DNA of 64,000 bases from Clostridia bacterium (GCA_045541035.1 JAZQII010000059.1:899-64898); one strand, 5' to 3'. Numbered from the stretch's first letter, positions 53,070-62,442 are shown. Numbers and translations: made by a program. The notes: a model not told the origin generated them from the sequence alone.

Positions 53070-53872
53070 TAAAAGAAAATTATCACACACACACTCATTT
53101 TTGCGATGGTAAAAATTCTCCCGAAGAAATGGTTTTAAAAGCCATAGAACTCAATTTTGATTATTTGGGATTTTCGGGACACGGGCATACAAGGAAGGAA
53201 AGTTCATACTGTATGTCCCCTGAAAACACAAAAAAATATTTTTCAGAAATAACCGCGTTAAAAGAAAAATATAAAGATCAGATTGAAATTCTTTGCGGAA
53301 TTGAGCAGGATATCATATCAAGTGACGATATCAGTTATTTTGACTATGCTATCGGTTCAACACATTACGTTATTAAAGATAATAAATTCTATAACGTTGA
53401 CGGGTCTATGGAAGAGTTCGATTTTGTTGTAAATGAAATTTATAAAGGTGAGTTTCTTAAATTTGCAGAAGAATATTTTGAAAACGTAAAAACTGTTGTT
53501 GATAAAACAAACTGTCAGATAATCGGGCATTTTGACCTTATTTCAAAAAACTTTGAGCGCAAAAATATTAAAGAAAGCGATAAATATCTGTATTTTGCAG
53601 AAGATGCTGTAAATGAGCTTGTTAAATATGATGTTCCTTTTGAAATAAATACCGGTGCCATTGCCCGCGGTTACAGAACGACGCCGTATCCATCTGAAAA
53701 TATTTTACAGATGATAAAAAACAAAAAGGGCAAAATTATTTTTACCAGCGATTGCCACGATAAAGACTTTTTGAATTGCTATTTTCTTGAAACCGAAAAT
53801 TTGGCTAAAAAAGTCGGATTTAAGAAAAGAAGCATTTTGACTCTAAACGGTTTTAAAGAGATTGACTTATGA
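53066..53872 (+). CDS. hisJ: PHP-family histidinol-phosphatase (HisJ/HisK type)
   Basis: HTHT..CDG, GIE, GSTH, GHFDL, EINTG and SDCH motifs; inside the his operon. Confidence 0.85.
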   Translation: MIKENYHTHTHFCDGKNSPEEMVLKAIELNFDYLGFSGHGHTRKESSYCMSPENTKKYFSEITALKEKYKDQIEILCGIEQDIISSDDISYFDYAIGSTHYVIKDNKFYNVDGSMEEFDFVVNEIYKGEFLKFAEEYFENVKTVVDKTNCQIIGHFDLISKNFERKNIKESDKYLYFAEDAVNELVKYDVPFEINTGAIARGYRTTPYPSENILQMIKNKKGKIIFTSDCHDKDFLNCYFLETENLAKKVGFKKRSILTLNGFKEIDL

Positions 53873-54663
53873 AGATAATTGACTTTCACACACACGTATA
53901 TCCCCAAAAAATTGCGCAAAAGGCAACGGAAAACGTTATTGGCTTTTACGGTCTTAAAGAAGGCTTAGGCGGCATGGTGGGCACAAGCGAAGTGCTTATT
54001 GCCTGCGGAAAAGAAGCGGGCATTGAAAATTTTGTTATTCTGCCCGTTGCATTAAAGGCAGAAACTGTCCGCCACATAAACGAAGCCGCATTACACGAAC
54101 TTGAAATACACAAAGAACTTTACGGCTTTGGCACTATTCATATTGATATGCCCGATATTTTAGGGGAAATTGAGTTTATAAAAGATAAAAAACTTAAAGG
54201 CGTTAAGATTCATCCTGATACACAGCGTTTTAACATTGATGATGAACGTCTTTTTCCGATGTATGAAGAAATTTCAGGTAAACTTCCCATAATGATCCAT
54301 TGCGGTGATCCCCGATACGATTATTCCCACCCAAGAAGATTAAAAAGAGTTTTAGATAATTTTCCCAAATTAACGGCAATCGGTGCGCATTTAGGCGGTT
54401 GGATGCTTTTTGATGAGGCTTTGGAACTTTTAAAAGATACAAACTGCTTTGTTGATATCTGTTCAAGCCATATGTTTATGGAAAAAGGTAAAATGGAATA
54501 TTATATCAACGGCTATGGGGCAGACCGTGTGCTTTTCGGCAGCGATTTTCCCATTTGGGATCCTAAAAAAGAAGCAGAAGCATTTATGGAGCTTCAGCTT
54601 ACTTATTCCCAAAAAGAAAAAATCGCATATAAAAATGCGTTATACTTATTGAAGGAGATTTGA
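53869..54663 (+). CDS. Amidohydrolase (Amidohydro_2 family)
   Basis: IDFHTH, GVKIHP, HCG, AHLGG and LFGSDFP motifs; ATGA overlap with the hisJ stop. Confidence 0.85.
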   Translation: MKIIDFHTHVYPQKIAQKATENVIGFYGLKEGLGGMVGTSEVLIACGKEAGIENFVILPVALKAETVRHINEAALHELEIHKELYGFGTIHIDMPDILGEIEFIKDKKLKGVKIHPDTQRFNIDDERLFPMYEEISGKLPIMIHCGDPRYDYSHPRRLKRVLDNFPKLTAIGAHLGGWMLFDEALELLKDTNCFVDICSSHMFMEKGKMEYYINGYGADRVLFGSDFPIWDPKKEAEAFMELQLTYSQKEKIAYKNALYLLKEI

Positions 54664-55227: not shown

Positions 55228-55259
55228 CTCCGCAGAAAACTAATTCTGCGGAGTTTTTT
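55228..55259 (+). terminator. Terminator ending the his transcript
   Basis: CTCCGCAGAA/TTCTGCGGAG plus TTTTTT. Confidence 0.85.
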
Positions 55260-55358: not shown

Positions 55359-55387
55359 TTGACAGATGGGGCATTTTGTTATATTAT
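55359..55387 (+). promoter_or_regulatory. SigA promoter of the Leu T-box leader
   Basis: TTGACA-17 bp-TATTAT. Confidence 0.7.
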
Positions 55388-55407
55388 TATAAAAAATTAA
55401 ATGATAA

Positions 55408-55674
55408 ATGCCATGAAGATATTAAACGTGTGTATTTTGCGCTTTCAGAGAGTCGCTGGTTGGTGTAAAGCGATAGGCAGGGCAAACGTTGTCTCGTATC
55501 GGAGCAGGGCCTCGGAATTTCAGTAAGAGGCTTCGGGAGTTCCCGTAACAGAACAAGGGTTTGTTTGAACCTTATTGAGTGGCTCAGATTTTGAGCAATA
55601 CGGGTGGTACCGTGGTCAAATAATTTGTTGATCATCCCGCGAAGATATAATGTATCTTTGCGGGTTTATTTTTT
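55408..55674 (+). ncRNA. T-box riboswitch, Leu specifier (CUC at 55493-55495)
   Basis: K-turn GCCATGAAGATA/TATCGGAGC, AGAGA bulge, GGTTGGTGTAA loop, T-box AATACGGGTGGTACCGTGG (55597-55615), terminator 55636-55674. Confidence 0.9.
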
Positions 55675-55695: not shown

Positions 55696-57060
55696 ATGAA
55701 GAAAATTGCAGTTTCCGACAACACACTTTTTGCAGTTGCGGAAGAAAAAAAGACACTTACTTTCAGAGAAAAACTTAACGTTTCAGCAGCGCTTGATGCT
55801 TGCGGATTTGATAATATTATTCTACCTCAACTGCTAAATGAAAAGGAAAATGCCATCGTTTACCGTACTATTGCTTCTGCCGTTGAAAATGCTTCTGTTA
55901 CAGTTTCCGTTTCTGATGAATCAAAGGTTGAAAGCGCATGGGAATCTGTTAAAGATGCTAAAAATCCCTGGATTTCAATAGTTGTTCCCGTTTCTACGGT
56001 GCAGATGGAATATCAGTATCATCTTAAAGCAACAAAAATGCTTGATAAGATTACTGCTCTTTGCGAAAGCGCAAAAAAATATACTGATAATTTTTCAGTT
56101 GTATTAAAAGATGCAACCCGTGCTGAAGACGGTTTTTTAAAAAAATGCGCAGAAACAGCATCAAAAGCAGGTGCAAAATATATTACCGTTGTTGATGATG
56201 CAGGTATTGCTTTCTCTGAAGAAATTTTTAAAATGGTTTCTGAAATCAAAGATATTATTCCTGTTTATGTTCAGCCGTCGGATATGCTTAAAATGGCTGC
56301 TTCATGCGCAGTTGAAGCAATTAAGGCAGGGGCAGAGGGTATAGTTACATCTACCGTTGGTCCTTGGCTTCGCGCTGATGTTTTATCTGATATTTTAAGG
56401 GCAAGAGGATTTGATCTTCAAACAGAAACGAGTCTTGATAAAACCAATATCCACAGAACTGTTGATGAGATCAACGTTAAAGGTGAAGCCGTTAAGGAAA
56501 TAAATATTGAAGAAAAACTTATTTCAGGTCTTGATGAAAGTGCAACGATAGATGATATCAAAGCCGCCGTACAGACTTTAGGCTATGAACTTTCCAGCGA
56601 AGATTACGGCAAGGTTTTTGAAGAATTTAAGCGCGTATCTCAAAAGCGCGGTGTTATCGGTGCAAGAGAGTTGGAAGCAATTATTGCAACAAGCGCAATG
56701 CAGGTGCCCTCAACATATCATCTTATAAACTACGTTGTAAATAACGGTAACGTTATTACTGCAACTGCAAGCATTATTCTTGAAAAAGACGGTGAAAGAA
56801 TTTCAGGTGTTGCAACGGGCGACGGTCCCATTGATGCTTCATTCCACGCCATTGAACAGATAATCGGTCATCATTACGAACTTGATGATTTTAAAGTTGA
56901 ATCTGTTACAAAGGGCAGGGAAGCCGTTGGGTCATCAATTATCCGTCTTCGTGCTAACGGAAAACTTTATTCAGGAAACGGTGTTTCCACCGATATTGTT
57001 GGCGCATGTATCCGTGCTTACGTCAACGCACTTAACAAAATAGTTTACGAGGAAAACTAA
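55696..57060 (+). CDS. LeuA-like protein: degenerate HMGL-like barrel plus intact LeuA regulatory domain
   Basis: C-terminal GDGPIDA and STDIV.AC..AYVNALN present. Catalytic DTTLRDGEQ, HxHND and GERAGN motifs are replaced. Confidence 0.85.
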   Translation: MKKIAVSDNTLFAVAEEKKTLTFREKLNVSAALDACGFDNIILPQLLNEKENAIVYRTIASAVENASVTVSVSDESKVESAWESVKDAKNPWISIVVPVSTVQMEYQYHLKATKMLDKITALCESAKKYTDNFSVVLKDATRAEDGFLKKCAETASKAGAKYITVVDDAGIAFSEEIFKMVSEIKDIIPVYVQPSDMLKMAASCAVEAIKAGAEGIVTSTVGPWLRADVLSDILRARGFDLQTETSLDKTNIHRTVDEINVKGEAVKEINIEEKLISGLDESATIDDIKAAVQTLGYELSSEDYGKVFEEFKRVSQKRGVIGARELEAIIATSAMQVPSTYHLINYVVNNGNVITATASIILEKDGERISGVATGDGPIDASFHAIEQIIGHHYELDDFKVESVTKGREAVGSSIIRLRANGKLYSGNGVSTDIVGACIRAYVNALNKIVYEEN

Positions 57061-57061
57061 T

Positions 57062-59512
57062 ATGAAATTTGCTTTTTCAACCGAAAACGTAAAGGCACTT
57101 TCGTTTTTGGAATATTGTAATATAACAAGTCAATACGGCTTTCAGGGGTTTGAGATCGCCGATCCCTTTAATGAGAAAAAAGATCATGACGACAGCGTTT
57201 TTCATTCTTCACAGATGAATGCGTCAAAAAGAAAACTTGTAAACCGCCACATTGATATAAGCGTGGTATCATTTCCAAAAAAGATAGATAAAAATACCGA
57301 CGCTGAACAACTTAAAAAAGCCGTTGAAATGGCGGCTATGGCAGGAGTTGGTAAAGTTTGCGTTTCTTTTTCGGAGATTCCTGAAGAAGAAACACTTAAA
57401 AATATTTTTGCGCCTGCTGTGGCTATTGCCGAAAGGTACGATATGTCAATTCTTATTGAAACTGACGGCGTACTTTCCGATACTAAAAAGGTTCTTGATG
57501 TTATAAACGTTTTCAGCAATGCTGTTTTCGGCGTTTCCTGGAACATTCGCGAAACGTACTTTAACCATAAAGAATCTGCCGATGAAACAATTCAGACTTT
57601 AGGCGCATATATAGAATATGTAAGAATCGGTGATAAAAAGGGCGAAAACAACGTTTTGATGGGCGAGGGTGAATTACCTGTTAAAGACTTCGTAAACGCC
57701 TTAAAAAGCCTTAATTTTGACGGTTACGTTTGTGCTTTATGGAATGATGAAATTACAGATCCCGATATTGTGCTTACACATTTTATCAGTTTTATGCAGA
57801 ACAGCGAAACAAAAGAGACTGAAGAAATTCACTATAACAGATCGAAAACGGGCACTTTCCCTTGGAAGAGATATGATGTTTTAAATATCACTTTTTCTGA
57901 AGTTCTTGATACAATGGTAGAAAAGTATCCCGATCAGTATGCTTTTAAATATACTACTCTTGATTATACGAGAACTTACTCTCAATTCCGCGATGACGTT
58001 GATAAAGTTGCGGCAGCGCTTATTTCTTTAGGTGTAAAACCAGGTCATCACGTTGCTATCTGGGCAACAAACGTGCCCCAATGGTTCTTAACTTTCTGGG
58101 CATCGGTTAAGATCGGCGCAGTTTTGGTAACTGTAAACACCGCATATAAAATTCATGAAGTTGAATATCTTTTAAGACAGTCCGATACCCATACTCTTGT
58201 TATGATAGAGGATTGTAAGGATTCTAACTATAAAGAAATTATCGAGGAACTTTGCCCCGAACTTAAAAATATTGAGCCGGGCAAACCCTTATATTCAAAA
58301 GCATTGCCGTTCTTAAGAAACGTTGTTTCAGTTGGATTTAATATGGACGGTTGTCTTGAATGGGATGATTTTATGAAGCGCAGCGATCTTGTTCCAAGAG
58401 AAGAAGTGCGCAGACGTGCTTCCATGGTTAAGCCTGATGACGTATGTAATATGCAGTATACTTCAGGTACAACGGGATTCCCCAAGGGCGTTATGCTTAC
58501 CCATAACAACATTATCAATAACGGCAAGATAATCGGCGACAGAATGGATACTTCTACCGCTGACAGAATGATGATTCAAGTGCCTATGTTCCATTGCTTC
58601 GGCATGGTACTTTCAATGACTAATATGATGACCCACGGCGGAACTATCTGCCCGATGCCGTATTTCTCGCCAAAATCATCTCTTGCATGTATCCACAACG
58701 AGAAGATAACGTGCTTTAACGGTGTTCCCACCATGTTTATTGCAATGTTCAATCATGAGGATTTTGCAAAAACAGATTTTTCACATATCAGAACGGGCAT
58801 TATGGCAGGCGCAAACTGTCCTGCTGATCTTATGCGCCGCGCTGCTGACGAAATGAACATGAAAGAGATTATAAGTGTTTATGGTCAGACGGAAGCATCT
58901 CCCGGTTGCACTATGGGCGAAGTAAACGAAGATATCGATCACCGCGTTGAAACGGTAGGCAGTGCTTTCCCCGGTGTTGAATGTAAGATTATTGATCCTG
59001 AAACGGGAGAAGAATTGCCTGACGGTGAAAACGGTGAGTTCGTTGCACGCGGCTATAATATTATGAAAGGATATTATAAAATGCCAAAGGCAACGGAGCA
59101 GACCATTGATAAAGACGGTTGGCTTCATTCAGGTGATATCTGTATGAGAACACCTGACGGATACTATAAGGTTACGGGCCGCTTAAAAGATATGATCATT
59201 CGCGGCGGTGAAAACCTTTATCCAAGAGAGATAGAAGAATTTTATCTTACTCACGAAAAAGTCCGCGACGTTCAGGTAGTCGGTGTTCCCGATGAACGCT
59301 ATGGCGAAGAAGCCTGCGCCTGGATAATTATTAACGAGGGCGAAACAAGCGACGAAAATGAAATGCGCGCCTACGGTGATTCCCATATGGCAAAGCACAA
59401 AGTTCCCAGATATTTTGTGTTTACCAAGGAATTTCCAATGAATGCGGCAGGTAAAATTCTTAAATATAAGATGCGCGATCAGTCTATTGAAATTTTAGGC
59501 TTAAAAAAATAA
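57062..59512 (+). CDS. Fusion of a xylose-isomerase-like (AP_endonuc_2) barrel and an AMP-forming acyl-CoA synthetase
   Basis: QYTSGTTGFPKG, YGQTE, GWLHSGD, RLKDMIIRGGENLYP and NAAGKILK motifs; about 255-aa TIM-barrel N-terminus. Confidence 0.88.
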   Translation: MKFAFSTENVKALSFLEYCNITSQYGFQGFEIADPFNEKKDHDDSVFHSSQMNASKRKLVNRHIDISVVSFPKKIDKNTDAEQLKKAVEMAAMAGVGKVCVSFSEIPEEETLKNIFAPAVAIAERYDMSILIETDGVLSDTKKVLDVINVFSNAVFGVSWNIRETYFNHKESADETIQTLGAYIEYVRIGDKKGENNVLMGEGELPVKDFVNALKSLNFDGYVCALWNDEITDPDIVLTHFISFMQNSETKETEEIHYNRSKTGTFPWKRYDVLNITFSEVLDTMVEKYPDQYAFKYTTLDYTRTYSQFRDDVDKVAAALISLGVKPGHHVAIWATNVPQWFLTFWASVKIGAVLVTVNTAYKIHEVEYLLRQSDTHTLVMIEDCKDSNYKEIIEELCPELKNIEPGKPLYSKALPFLRNVVSVGFNMDGCLEWDDFMKRSDLVPREEVRRRASMVKPDDVCNMQYTSGTTGFPKGVMLTHNNIINNGKIIGDRMDTSTADRMMIQVPMFHCFGMVLSMTNMMTHGGTICPMPYFSPKSSLACIHNEKITCFNGVPTMFIAMFNHEDFAKTDFSHIRTGIMAGANCPADLMRRAADEMNMKEIISVYGQTEASPGCTMGEVNEDIDHRVETVGSAFPGVECKIIDPETGEELPDGENGEFVARGYNIMKGYYKMPKATEQTIDKDGWLHSGDICMRTPDGYYKVTGRLKDMIIRGGENLYPREIEEFYLTHEKVRDVQVVGVPDERYGEEACAWIIINEGETSDENEMRAYGDSHMAKHKVPRYFVFTKEFPMNAAGKILKYKMRDQSIEILGLKK

Positions 59513-59550: not shown

Positions 59551-59571
59551 TCATACATAATTAAATATAAA

Positions 59572-59840
59572 GGCTATGACGAAGACGGAACCAATCAAGG
59601 TTTCACAGAGAGTCGGGGCAGGTGGAAGCCCGATAAACAAAGGTTGTTATTCCTATCACTTCTGAGCTGAAGATCCGAAAAAATATTTGTAGGCGTCTTC
59701 CGTGATTGCTGCGTAAAGGCATCGGGCTTGTAGGAGCTTTAAGGGGTACGGGTCATACCGTGCAAATTGAGTGGTACCGCGGGTATTGTTAAAAAACATG
59801 ACTCGTCTCAATGATTTTTGAGACGGGTCTTTTTATTTTT
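59572..59840 (+). ncRNA. T-box riboswitch, Ile specifier (AUC at 59655-59657)
   Basis: GGCTATGACGAAG/CTTCTGAGC K-turn, CAGAGAG, GGTGGAAG loop, T-box AAATTGAGTGGTACCGCGG (59764-59782), terminator 59800-59840. Confidence 0.92.
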
Positions 59841-62168: not shown

Positions 62169-62183
62169 TCTCATATATTAAAA

Positions 62184-62442
62184 GGCTTTGACGAAGAGGG
62201 AATTATAGCTTCAGTCCAAAGAGAAACGGCGGTTGGTGTAAGCCGTTGTCTGAACTGTGATTTTTGTAGCTTCTGAGCCGAAAGGAAGAAAGAATTTTTA
62301 TTCAAGTAGAACCTTTCCGTTATTGCTGCGTAAATGCATAAGGCTTGTTTGAGTCTGAGGTGGCACAGTTTGTGCAATTTGAGTGGTACCGCGGGTAATG
62401 TTTGCTCGTCTCAAAGTAATCATATCTTTGAGGCGGGCTTTT
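62184..62442 (+). ncRNA. T-box riboswitch, Val specifier (GUA at 62266-62268)
   Basis: GGCTTTGACGAAG/CTTCTGAGCC K-turn, AAGAGA, GGTTGGTGTAAG loop, T-box AATTTGAGTGGTACCGCGG (62376-62394), terminator 62404-62442. Confidence 0.92.

Follow-up and report, generated by a model that had tools for sequence, protein, structure and literature searches.

A non-catalytic LeuA paralogue paired with a barrel–acyl-CoA ligase behind a leucine T-box: a candidate leucine sensor in uncultured Clostridia

The reductive carboxylation of isovalerate to leucine is an established physiology of rumen bacteria and has been known since the 1960s. As to how branched-chain amino acids are made from branched short-chain fatty acids, the physiology is long known and the genes are poorly assigned. 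The canonical leucine pathway starts with the 2-isopropylmalate synthase LeuA (EC 2.3.3.13; models TIGR00973 and NF002086), a DRE-TIM metallolyase with the structures 3ewb, 3rmj, 1sr9 and 3fig. The ilv-leu operon of Bacillus subtilis uses a Leu T-box. In histidine synthesis, HisZ, a catalytically dead paralogue of HisRS, is the regulatory subunit of the short-form ATP phosphoribosyltransferase HisG_S (PMC9734150). Here, we describe a LeuA paralogue encoded at 55696..57060 on a stretch of 64,000 nucleotides from a Clostridia bacterium (GCA_045541035.1, JAZQII010000059.1:899-64898). This whole stretch is called the window; coordinates without a locus name refer to it, and the genes, T-boxes and promoter described from it lie on its plus strand. 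The gene product is almost certainly neither an isopropylmalate synthase nor the product of a pseudogene, and the gene very probably belongs to an isovalerate-to-leucine unit. On balance, we lean towards the view that the protein serves an isovalerate-CoA ligase as a non-catalytic subunit that responds to leucine; this ligase would open the reductive-carboxylation route to leucine.

The open reading frame (ORF) is intact, as the earlier note on this DNA had stated, and encodes 454 amino acids. Pfam recognised a degenerate HMGL-like barrel (PF00682, residues 18–222, 72.6 bits) and a LeuA_dimer regulatory domain (PF08502, residues 323–449, 102 bits against a cut-off of 24.9). The barrel part covers residues 1–222 (55696–56361), a shortened linker residues 223–322 and the regulatory part residues 323–454 (56662–57057). 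The best NCBIfam models were LeuA equivalogs, with scores below cut-off (NF002086, 214.1 against 532 bits; TIGR00973, 197.3 against 598.7 bits).

Residue-level alignments with the solved LeuA barrels 3ewb and 3rmj and with six LeuA from related genomes revealed the loss of the catalytic machinery. The earlier note had read SDNTLFAVAEE in place of DTTLRDGEQ and YVQPSD in place of HxHND, and had noted the absence of the motif GERAGN. The alignments bore out all three readings. The first replacement turns arginine into phenylalanine and the metal-site aspartate into alanine. HCHxD is present as VQPSD, with valine and proline instead of the metal-binding histidine pair, and GxGERAGN as GPWLRAD, with a gap at the glutamate. 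Further losses concern the TSxxH helix (helix 4), where S..H became S..Q, the catalytic glutamate of FSxEDAxR, which is a lysine in VLKDATR, and the threonine of PDTVG, an aspartate in VDDAG. A segment of about 50 residues in subdomain I is deleted together with AHESGIHQ and its histidine.

Twelve catalytic positions were tabulated for 105 full-length representatives, one per 50%-identity cluster, from 1.84 billion proteins. Neither metal-binding histidine was kept in any of them. The GERAGN glutamate was absent in 104 and the subdomain I histidine in 103 of the 105, and the LRDG aspartate was kept in nine. No representative retained more than five of the 12 positions. The losses are family-wide and not a matter of chance. 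A separate LeuA-like protein of 483 amino acids (P0386, locus L094 278–1729, on a contig of 1.7 kb) kept arginine and aspartate of LRDG and carries cysteine and arginine at the two metal histidine positions and serine for the GERAGN glutamate; it may represent an independent or an intermediate degeneration.

Some members of the family are labelled ‘2-isopropylmalate synthase’ by JGI, wrongly, and others ‘hypothetical protein’ or ‘AMP-binding protein’. The label would fit a divergent but functional isopropylmalate or citramalate synthase, a reading which we consider, together with that of a decaying pseudogene, highly improbable. Every metal ligand and catalytic residue is missing. The product would also be unusable in this organism, which has no LeuC and no LeuB above cut-off. 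LeuA, LeuC, IlvC and IlvD were not found in its genome, which is 96% complete; the best LeuC match reached 82.6 bits (cut-off 560) and the best LeuB match 268.9 bits (cut-off 353). The protein should be named LeuA-like (non-catalytic) instead of 2-isopropylmalate synthase, because each catalytic feature of LeuA was found to be lost and the fold and the regulatory domain were found to be present. Searches of the databases and the literature found neither a curated NCBIfam or Pfam family nor a published description of the gene pair.

The only other LeuA-, LeuC- and LeuB-like matches in the genome (C90:64065-65186, C76:8631-9599 and C35:9500-10522) are a 473-amino-acid homocitrate/Re-citrate-synthase-like protein lacking the regulatory domain, a 738-amino-acid aconitase-like protein and a 365-amino-acid isocitrate/isopropylmalate-dehydrogenase-like protein. 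Taken as a set, they resemble the oxidative branch of the tricarboxylic acid cycle, not a leucine pathway. Of 101 related genomes, 24 encode the LeuA-like protein and 41 a LeuA above cut-off, with no overlap (Fisher p 4e-7, and 0.005 outside the own genus, both uncorrected for phylogeny).

A scan of one genome per species yielded at least 558 loci, of which 80 were retrieved. All originate from uncultured gut and rumen Clostridia (Christensenellaceae, Acutalibacteraceae, Oscillospiraceae and unclassified). The reading frame is intact in all 77 loci with a complete gene. The ratio of nonsynonymous to synonymous substitution rates (dN/dS; Nei–Gojobori, about 40 pairs with unsaturated or moderately saturated dS) was 0.05–0.15 for the gene and lowest, 0–0.07, in the regulatory domain. 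The intact frames and a dN/dS of about 0.1 exclude decay; the gene is not a decaying pseudogene. Neutral decay, which the earlier note had named as a refutation, was thus not seen. The mean pairwise identity is 74% in the regulatory domain, 49% in the barrel and 36% in the linker.

The barrel is itself under purifying selection (dN/dS 0.06–0.25) and has invariant residues specific to the family (F23, R24, H109 and K111). Both would suit a barrel that acquired a new catalytic or ligand-handling role, for example in channelling isovaleryl-CoA or 2-oxoisocaproate between the ligase, a 2-oxoacid:ferredoxin oxidoreductase (VOR) and an aminotransferase. This is quite unlikely. The vacated active-site positions vary widely (E, Q, S, C, R or A at the first histidine and E, Q, N, K, D or S at the aspartate among the 105 representatives), and the lack of a new fixed residue set speaks against a novel active site in the former position. 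Of the invariant barrel residues, most (D8, S100, MEY, D139, R142, D167 and G170) belong to the ancestral LeuA framework, and subdomain I, the acetyl-CoA and catalytic segment, is deleted.

The maximum-likelihood tree united the family, including its most distant members with 33–36% identity, in one clade (SH-aLRT 97). This clade groups with bacterial LeuA (98) and apart from the CimA-like paralogues of the same order (100). Citramalate synthase models of NCBIfam gave only 25–33 bits. The comparison of LeuA with CimA that the earlier note had asked for thus points to descent from LeuA, and an origin from citramalate synthase was ruled out by tree and model scores. By its place in the tree, beside bacterial LeuA and not with the CimA-like proteins, the sensor domain belongs to the leucine-responsive lineage.

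The regulatory domain was described as well conserved before, and the family confirms it. GDGPIDA and STDIVGACIRAYVNALNK are present in the window protein and invariant or nearly so among 56 homologues. The eight positions of the regulatory motifs (G-D-G-P..D and S-T-D) were kept in 85–105 of the 105 representatives, seven of them in at least 98. An AlphaFold2 model computed with the 56 homologues had a mean predicted local distance difference test (pLDDT) of 84.4. In Foldseek, its barrel superimposed with the barrel of Listeria LeuA (3ewb) at a template modelling score of 0.90 and a root-mean-square deviation of 1.7 Å, and the whole chain matched the LeuA of Mycobacterium tuberculosis, including the leucine-bound 3fig, with E about 1e-19. 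In LeuA, the leucine carboxylate is held between two helix N-termini (PMC11057210). The GDGP and STDI motifs are located at the N-termini of model helices 378–390 and 434–453. The leucine site looks preserved in the model, because these motifs cap the helices that flank the leucine carboxylate in LeuA.

The LeuA-like gene is strictly paired with the gene downstream. A single base lies between its stop codon TAA (57058–57060) and the partner's ATG at 57062, the spacing given in the earlier note. The partner gene (57062..59512) encodes 816 amino acids with the Pfam domains AP_endonuc_2, AMP-binding and AMP-binding_C. Residues 1–255 (57062–57826) form a xylose-isomerase-like TIM barrel with three of four metal ligands replaced, followed by a conserved linker. 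Residues 281–816 are an acyl-CoA ligase of the ANL superfamily, PRK12583-like in NCBIfam (672 bits, below cut-off) and putatively specific for isovalerate. The constant co-occurrence that the earlier note proposed to check was found: the barrel–ligase gene stands directly behind the LeuA-like gene in 64 of 64 loci that extend far enough. It likewise follows the earliest-branching member of the family, with 33% identity the most distant one examined.

The gap between stop and start is 1 nucleotide in 37 and −4 to +5 nucleotides in 56 of the 77 loci, and the two ORFs share a frame in eight loci only. The ribosome-binding site of the partner, GAGGAA, sits within the conserved C-terminal codons (YEE) of the LeuA-like gene. 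The two genes are translationally coupled. Within the partner, the mean pairwise identity is 85% in the ligase part and 51% in the fused barrel, against 49% in the barrel of the LeuA-like protein. The pairwise distances of the two barrels correlate with r 0.79, and with a partial r of 0.55 given the ligase, without correction for phylogeny. The LeuA-like barrel correlates less with its own regulatory domain (r 0.66). The co-variation of the barrels is no more than suggestive.

Tight gene coupling and co-varying barrels would be expected as well for an obligate structural or activating partner of the ligase that uses LeuA_dimer for dimerisation only and binds no ligand. Pfam itself calls the domain an ‘allosteric (dimerisation) domain’, and dead paralogues acting as pure activators are known, such as the trypanosome AdoMetDC prozyme (PMC5201418). 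We consider a purely structural role unlikely. The most conserved residues are the GDGP and STDI helix caps which hold leucine in LeuA and would not obviously be needed for dimerisation, and the dN/dS of the regulatory domain is several-fold below that of the barrel. The LeuA-like protein is probably a leucine sensor, because it is always co-encoded with the ligase behind a Leu T-box and kept its sensing domain.

The fused barrel was modelled with a pLDDT of 91.4, and its nearest solved folds are ketose 3-epimerases. Where metal ligands would be expected, the window lineage has E / N..R / R..D / L. The earliest-branching family member (P0354, locus L095 6001–9041, GCA_964593505.1) is accompanied by a fused barrel with intact metal-ligand motifs (ET, WDIHH, YVHMKD and YEW; AP_endonuc_2 with 114 bits). 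This barrel was probably a working enzyme, or at least metal-bound, when the pair arose, and its conservation in the earliest-branching lineage shows that the second barrel degenerated after pair formation. No T-box was found in the 150 nucleotides upstream of P0354. A non-canonical isopropylmalate synthase that uses the second barrel was rejected: the genome lacks LeuC, and the barrel is of the xylose-isomerase type and has lost three of four metal ligands.

Transcription of the unit is predicted to start at a sigma-70-type promoter (55359..55387; TTGACA, 17 nucleotides, TATTAT; 11 of 12 consensus matches), which follows the terminator of the upstream gene (55228–55253). The Leu T-box leader assumed in the earlier note was located at 55404..55642 (Rfam RF00230, 107.2 bits against a gathering score of 93). 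Both the cmscan alignment and the sequence were used to read its specifier CTC (Leu, 55493–55495). The terminator hairpin (55636–55664; 55636..55674 with the T-run) consists of a 13-bp stem followed by TTTATTTTTT. Rfam scans detected a T-box ahead of the LeuA-like gene in 19 of 19 distinct further loci, and the specifier was CUC in all eight leaders read ahead of homologues. T-box calls were taken from these scans, since a simple regular expression gave false positions inside the Amidohydro_2 gene of Christensenellaceae-type loci.

Several leaders are duplicated. In L016 (5488–5998) and similar Christensenellaceae-type loci, tandem leaders precede the LeuA-like gene: a complete T-box with terminator, then a second promoter-like site and, ending in a further terminator, a truncated T-box-like element (63 bits). 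L014 (4475–5002) has two full T-boxes in series. In the genome of the window, aragorn detected tRNA-Leu with the anticodons AAG, CAA, CAG, TAA and TAG and none with GAG, though the specifier is CUC. Either tRNA-Leu(GAG) is missing from the 109-contig assembly, or tRNA-Leu(AAG) reads CUC via a modified wobble base (inosine).

The pathway neighbours complete the unit. Clustering of the neighbours in Christensenellaceae-type loci showed that the Leu unit continues past the ligase with a branched-chain aminotransferase (BCAT), a small P-loop protein and a VOR. The BCAT matched NF009897 with 476 bits and the VOR alpha subunit the VorB model NF005507 with 551 bits, both above cut-off, and beta and gamma subunits are encoded alongside. 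In the genome of the window, the same genes, with 70–80% identity to the Christensenellaceae-type proteins, are located on the same contig just past the window end, with Ile and Val T-box units between them and the Leu unit. The simplest chemistry joining these parts would be the activation of isovalerate with ATP and CoA to isovaleryl-CoA, its conversion with reduced ferredoxin and CO2 to 2-oxoisocaproate and the transformation of the latter into leucine.

These components suggest the following mechanism. Uncharged tRNA-Leu would open the CUC T-box, and only then would the LeuA-like gene and the ligase be transcribed and their products be made in a fixed proportion. The ligase would convert isovalerate to isovaleryl-CoA, the VorB-type VOR would carboxylate it reductively to 2-oxoisocaproate and BCAT would yield leucine. 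The LeuA-like protein may dimerise via its regulatory domains as LeuA does, with leucine bound at the dimer interface, and dock on the ligase, probably barrel to barrel, so that the leucine signal would pass through the contact of the barrels. With plentiful leucine, the ATP-consuming ligase step would be shut off. HisG_S depends on HisZ, and ligase activity may likewise require the LeuA-like protein. Control would thus have two tiers: a slow transcriptional sensing of tRNA-Leu charging by the T-box and a fast feedback by the leucine-binding domain in trans.

The earlier note had proposed a pseudoenzyme leucine sensor that serves as a leucine-binding regulatory subunit of the adjacent ligase. 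All predictions of this reading that could be tested at the level of sequence held, namely catalytic loss, selection, pairing, T-box and LeuA descent. The reading is partly supported; leucine binding, the complex with the ligase and the direction of regulation are what we infer from this pattern. More specifically, a two-pseudoenzyme device can be envisaged, in which a dimer of the LeuA-like protein sits on the degenerate ketose-epimerase-type barrel and imposes leucine feedback on the ANL-superfamily ligase. In this way, the feedback sensor of the lost canonical pathway would have come to act in trans on the enzyme that opens its non-homologous replacement. This device is tentative and, in our judgement, falls somewhat short of probable.

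Several observations weigh against a leucine-responsive ligase subunit. The clear constraint on the barrel and the invariants of the family, which include GHHYELDDF besides the four residues named above, make a second function of the barrel conceivable. The invariant patches specific to the family are F23/R24, Y108–K111 and G391–F399, beside WNxRET and RxGD on the ligase barrel. A phmmer search of PDB sequences with the regulatory domain alone gave no match even at E 10, and the family profile matched only barrels among them; the leucine site was thus compared at the level of motifs and helices. The LeuA motif TDI(V/I)EAS is TDIVGAC in the LeuA-like protein, and the ligand specificity could have shifted by this replacement. 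The substrate of the ligase is deduced from its context; in no NCBIfam model does the protein reach the cut-off. Neither the co-occurrence nor the mirror-tree statistics carry a phylogenetic correction. Finally, a search for natural fusions of the LeuA-like protein with the ligase in 5.8 billion clusters found none, at the sensitivity of the word index and for proteins of 700–2222 amino acids carrying the regulatory domain; the 120 best barrel homologues and the 150 best representatives likewise contained none.

A conserved regulatory domain without a fusion to the ligase would also agree with a leucine sensor that acts on another target, such as VOR, the aminotransferase, a transporter or gene expression. 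Such a target is distinctly improbable. The ligase alone is invariably adjacent, whereas only about one locus in four has BCAT and VOR genes next to the pair, and Pfam detected no DNA- or RNA-binding domain in the protein.

The Leu unit is followed by two further T-box units. A T-box with the specifier AUC (Ile) at 59567..59813 (RF00230, 82.9 bits, E 8.8e-18) and one with GUA (Val) at 62179..62416 (90.6 bits, E 9.6e-20) scored just under the gathering score. The Ile T-box precedes a helix-turn-helix–cupin–acyl-CoA ligase gene (HTH_3, Cupin_2 and AMP-binding; MbcS-like with 444 bits), whose ORF extends to 62130. The Val T-box precedes a second MbcS-like ligase gene with HTH_3 and Cupin_2, which extends past the window end. 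The mechanical ORF starts of the two genes (59818 and 62383) fall within leaders or terminators, and the true starts are thus further downstream. In L084 (5304–5532, minus strand), an Ile (AUC) T-box that drives two such genes and the Leu unit diverge; across genomes, the three units are thus shuffled yet still clustered.

Upstream of the Leu unit, the window encodes an Amidohydro_2 protein (53869..54663, 264 amino acids, Pfam 83 bits, no NCBIfam match). In 53 loci, its gene (cluster c2, L005–L084) is found beside the pair, on the upstream side of the T-box or else directly after the ligase. The linkage holds in otherwise differing neighbourhoods, such as a his operon or sbcCD-like genes.

If the proposed function is true, the family is a clear bacterial case of a lost pathway's first enzyme kept as a non-catalytic sensor controlling a different enzyme, a counterpart of HisZ. 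The cluster would provide candidate genes and their regulation for the synthesis of leucine, isoleucine and valine from branched short-chain fatty acids, which are abundant in gut and rumen. The two-pseudoenzyme device, if true, would for the first time assign a gene to the step that activates isovalerate on its way to leucine in rumen bacteria. The label ‘2-isopropylmalate synthase’ would mislead metabolic models into a leucine pathway in hundreds of uncultured Clostridia; the annotation is corrected here.

The LeuA-like protein shares fold and domain order with LeuA and has the same GDGP(V/I)DA and STDI motifs, and it branches within or beside bacterial LeuA. It differs from LeuA by the absence of the Arg/Asp/His/His/Glu set and of subdomain I and is about 50 residues shorter. 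Its gene is never beside leuBCD, always beside the barrel–ligase, and is found only in genomes without a true LeuA. With the classical ilv-leu control in Firmicutes, the unit shares a CUC T-box for transcription and, for fast control, a LeuA-type domain predicted to bind leucine. The controlled step would differ: it is the acyl-CoA formation feeding reductive carboxylation and not a Claisen condensation. The methylbutyryl-CoA synthetase MbcS is resembled by the ligases behind the Ile and Val T-boxes, which matched NF047394 (444 bits, below the cut-off of 850) and suggest that the substrates of the cluster are of the branched-chain acid class. In contrast, the ligase of the Leu unit belongs to another ANL subgroup, has a TIM barrel instead of helix-turn-helix and cupin domains and is paired with the separate LeuA-like gene. 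By analogy, HisZ is the closest functional precedent: a dead paralogue that, as proposed here, retains the amino acid site and exerts end-product feedback on the first enzyme of a pathway. The HisZ complex and its histidine binding are established experimentally, whereas both are predicted for the LeuA-like protein. Unlike HisZ, the LeuA-like protein is descended from the enzyme that starts the canonical pathway, and it would control a non-homologous enzyme of an alternative pathway.

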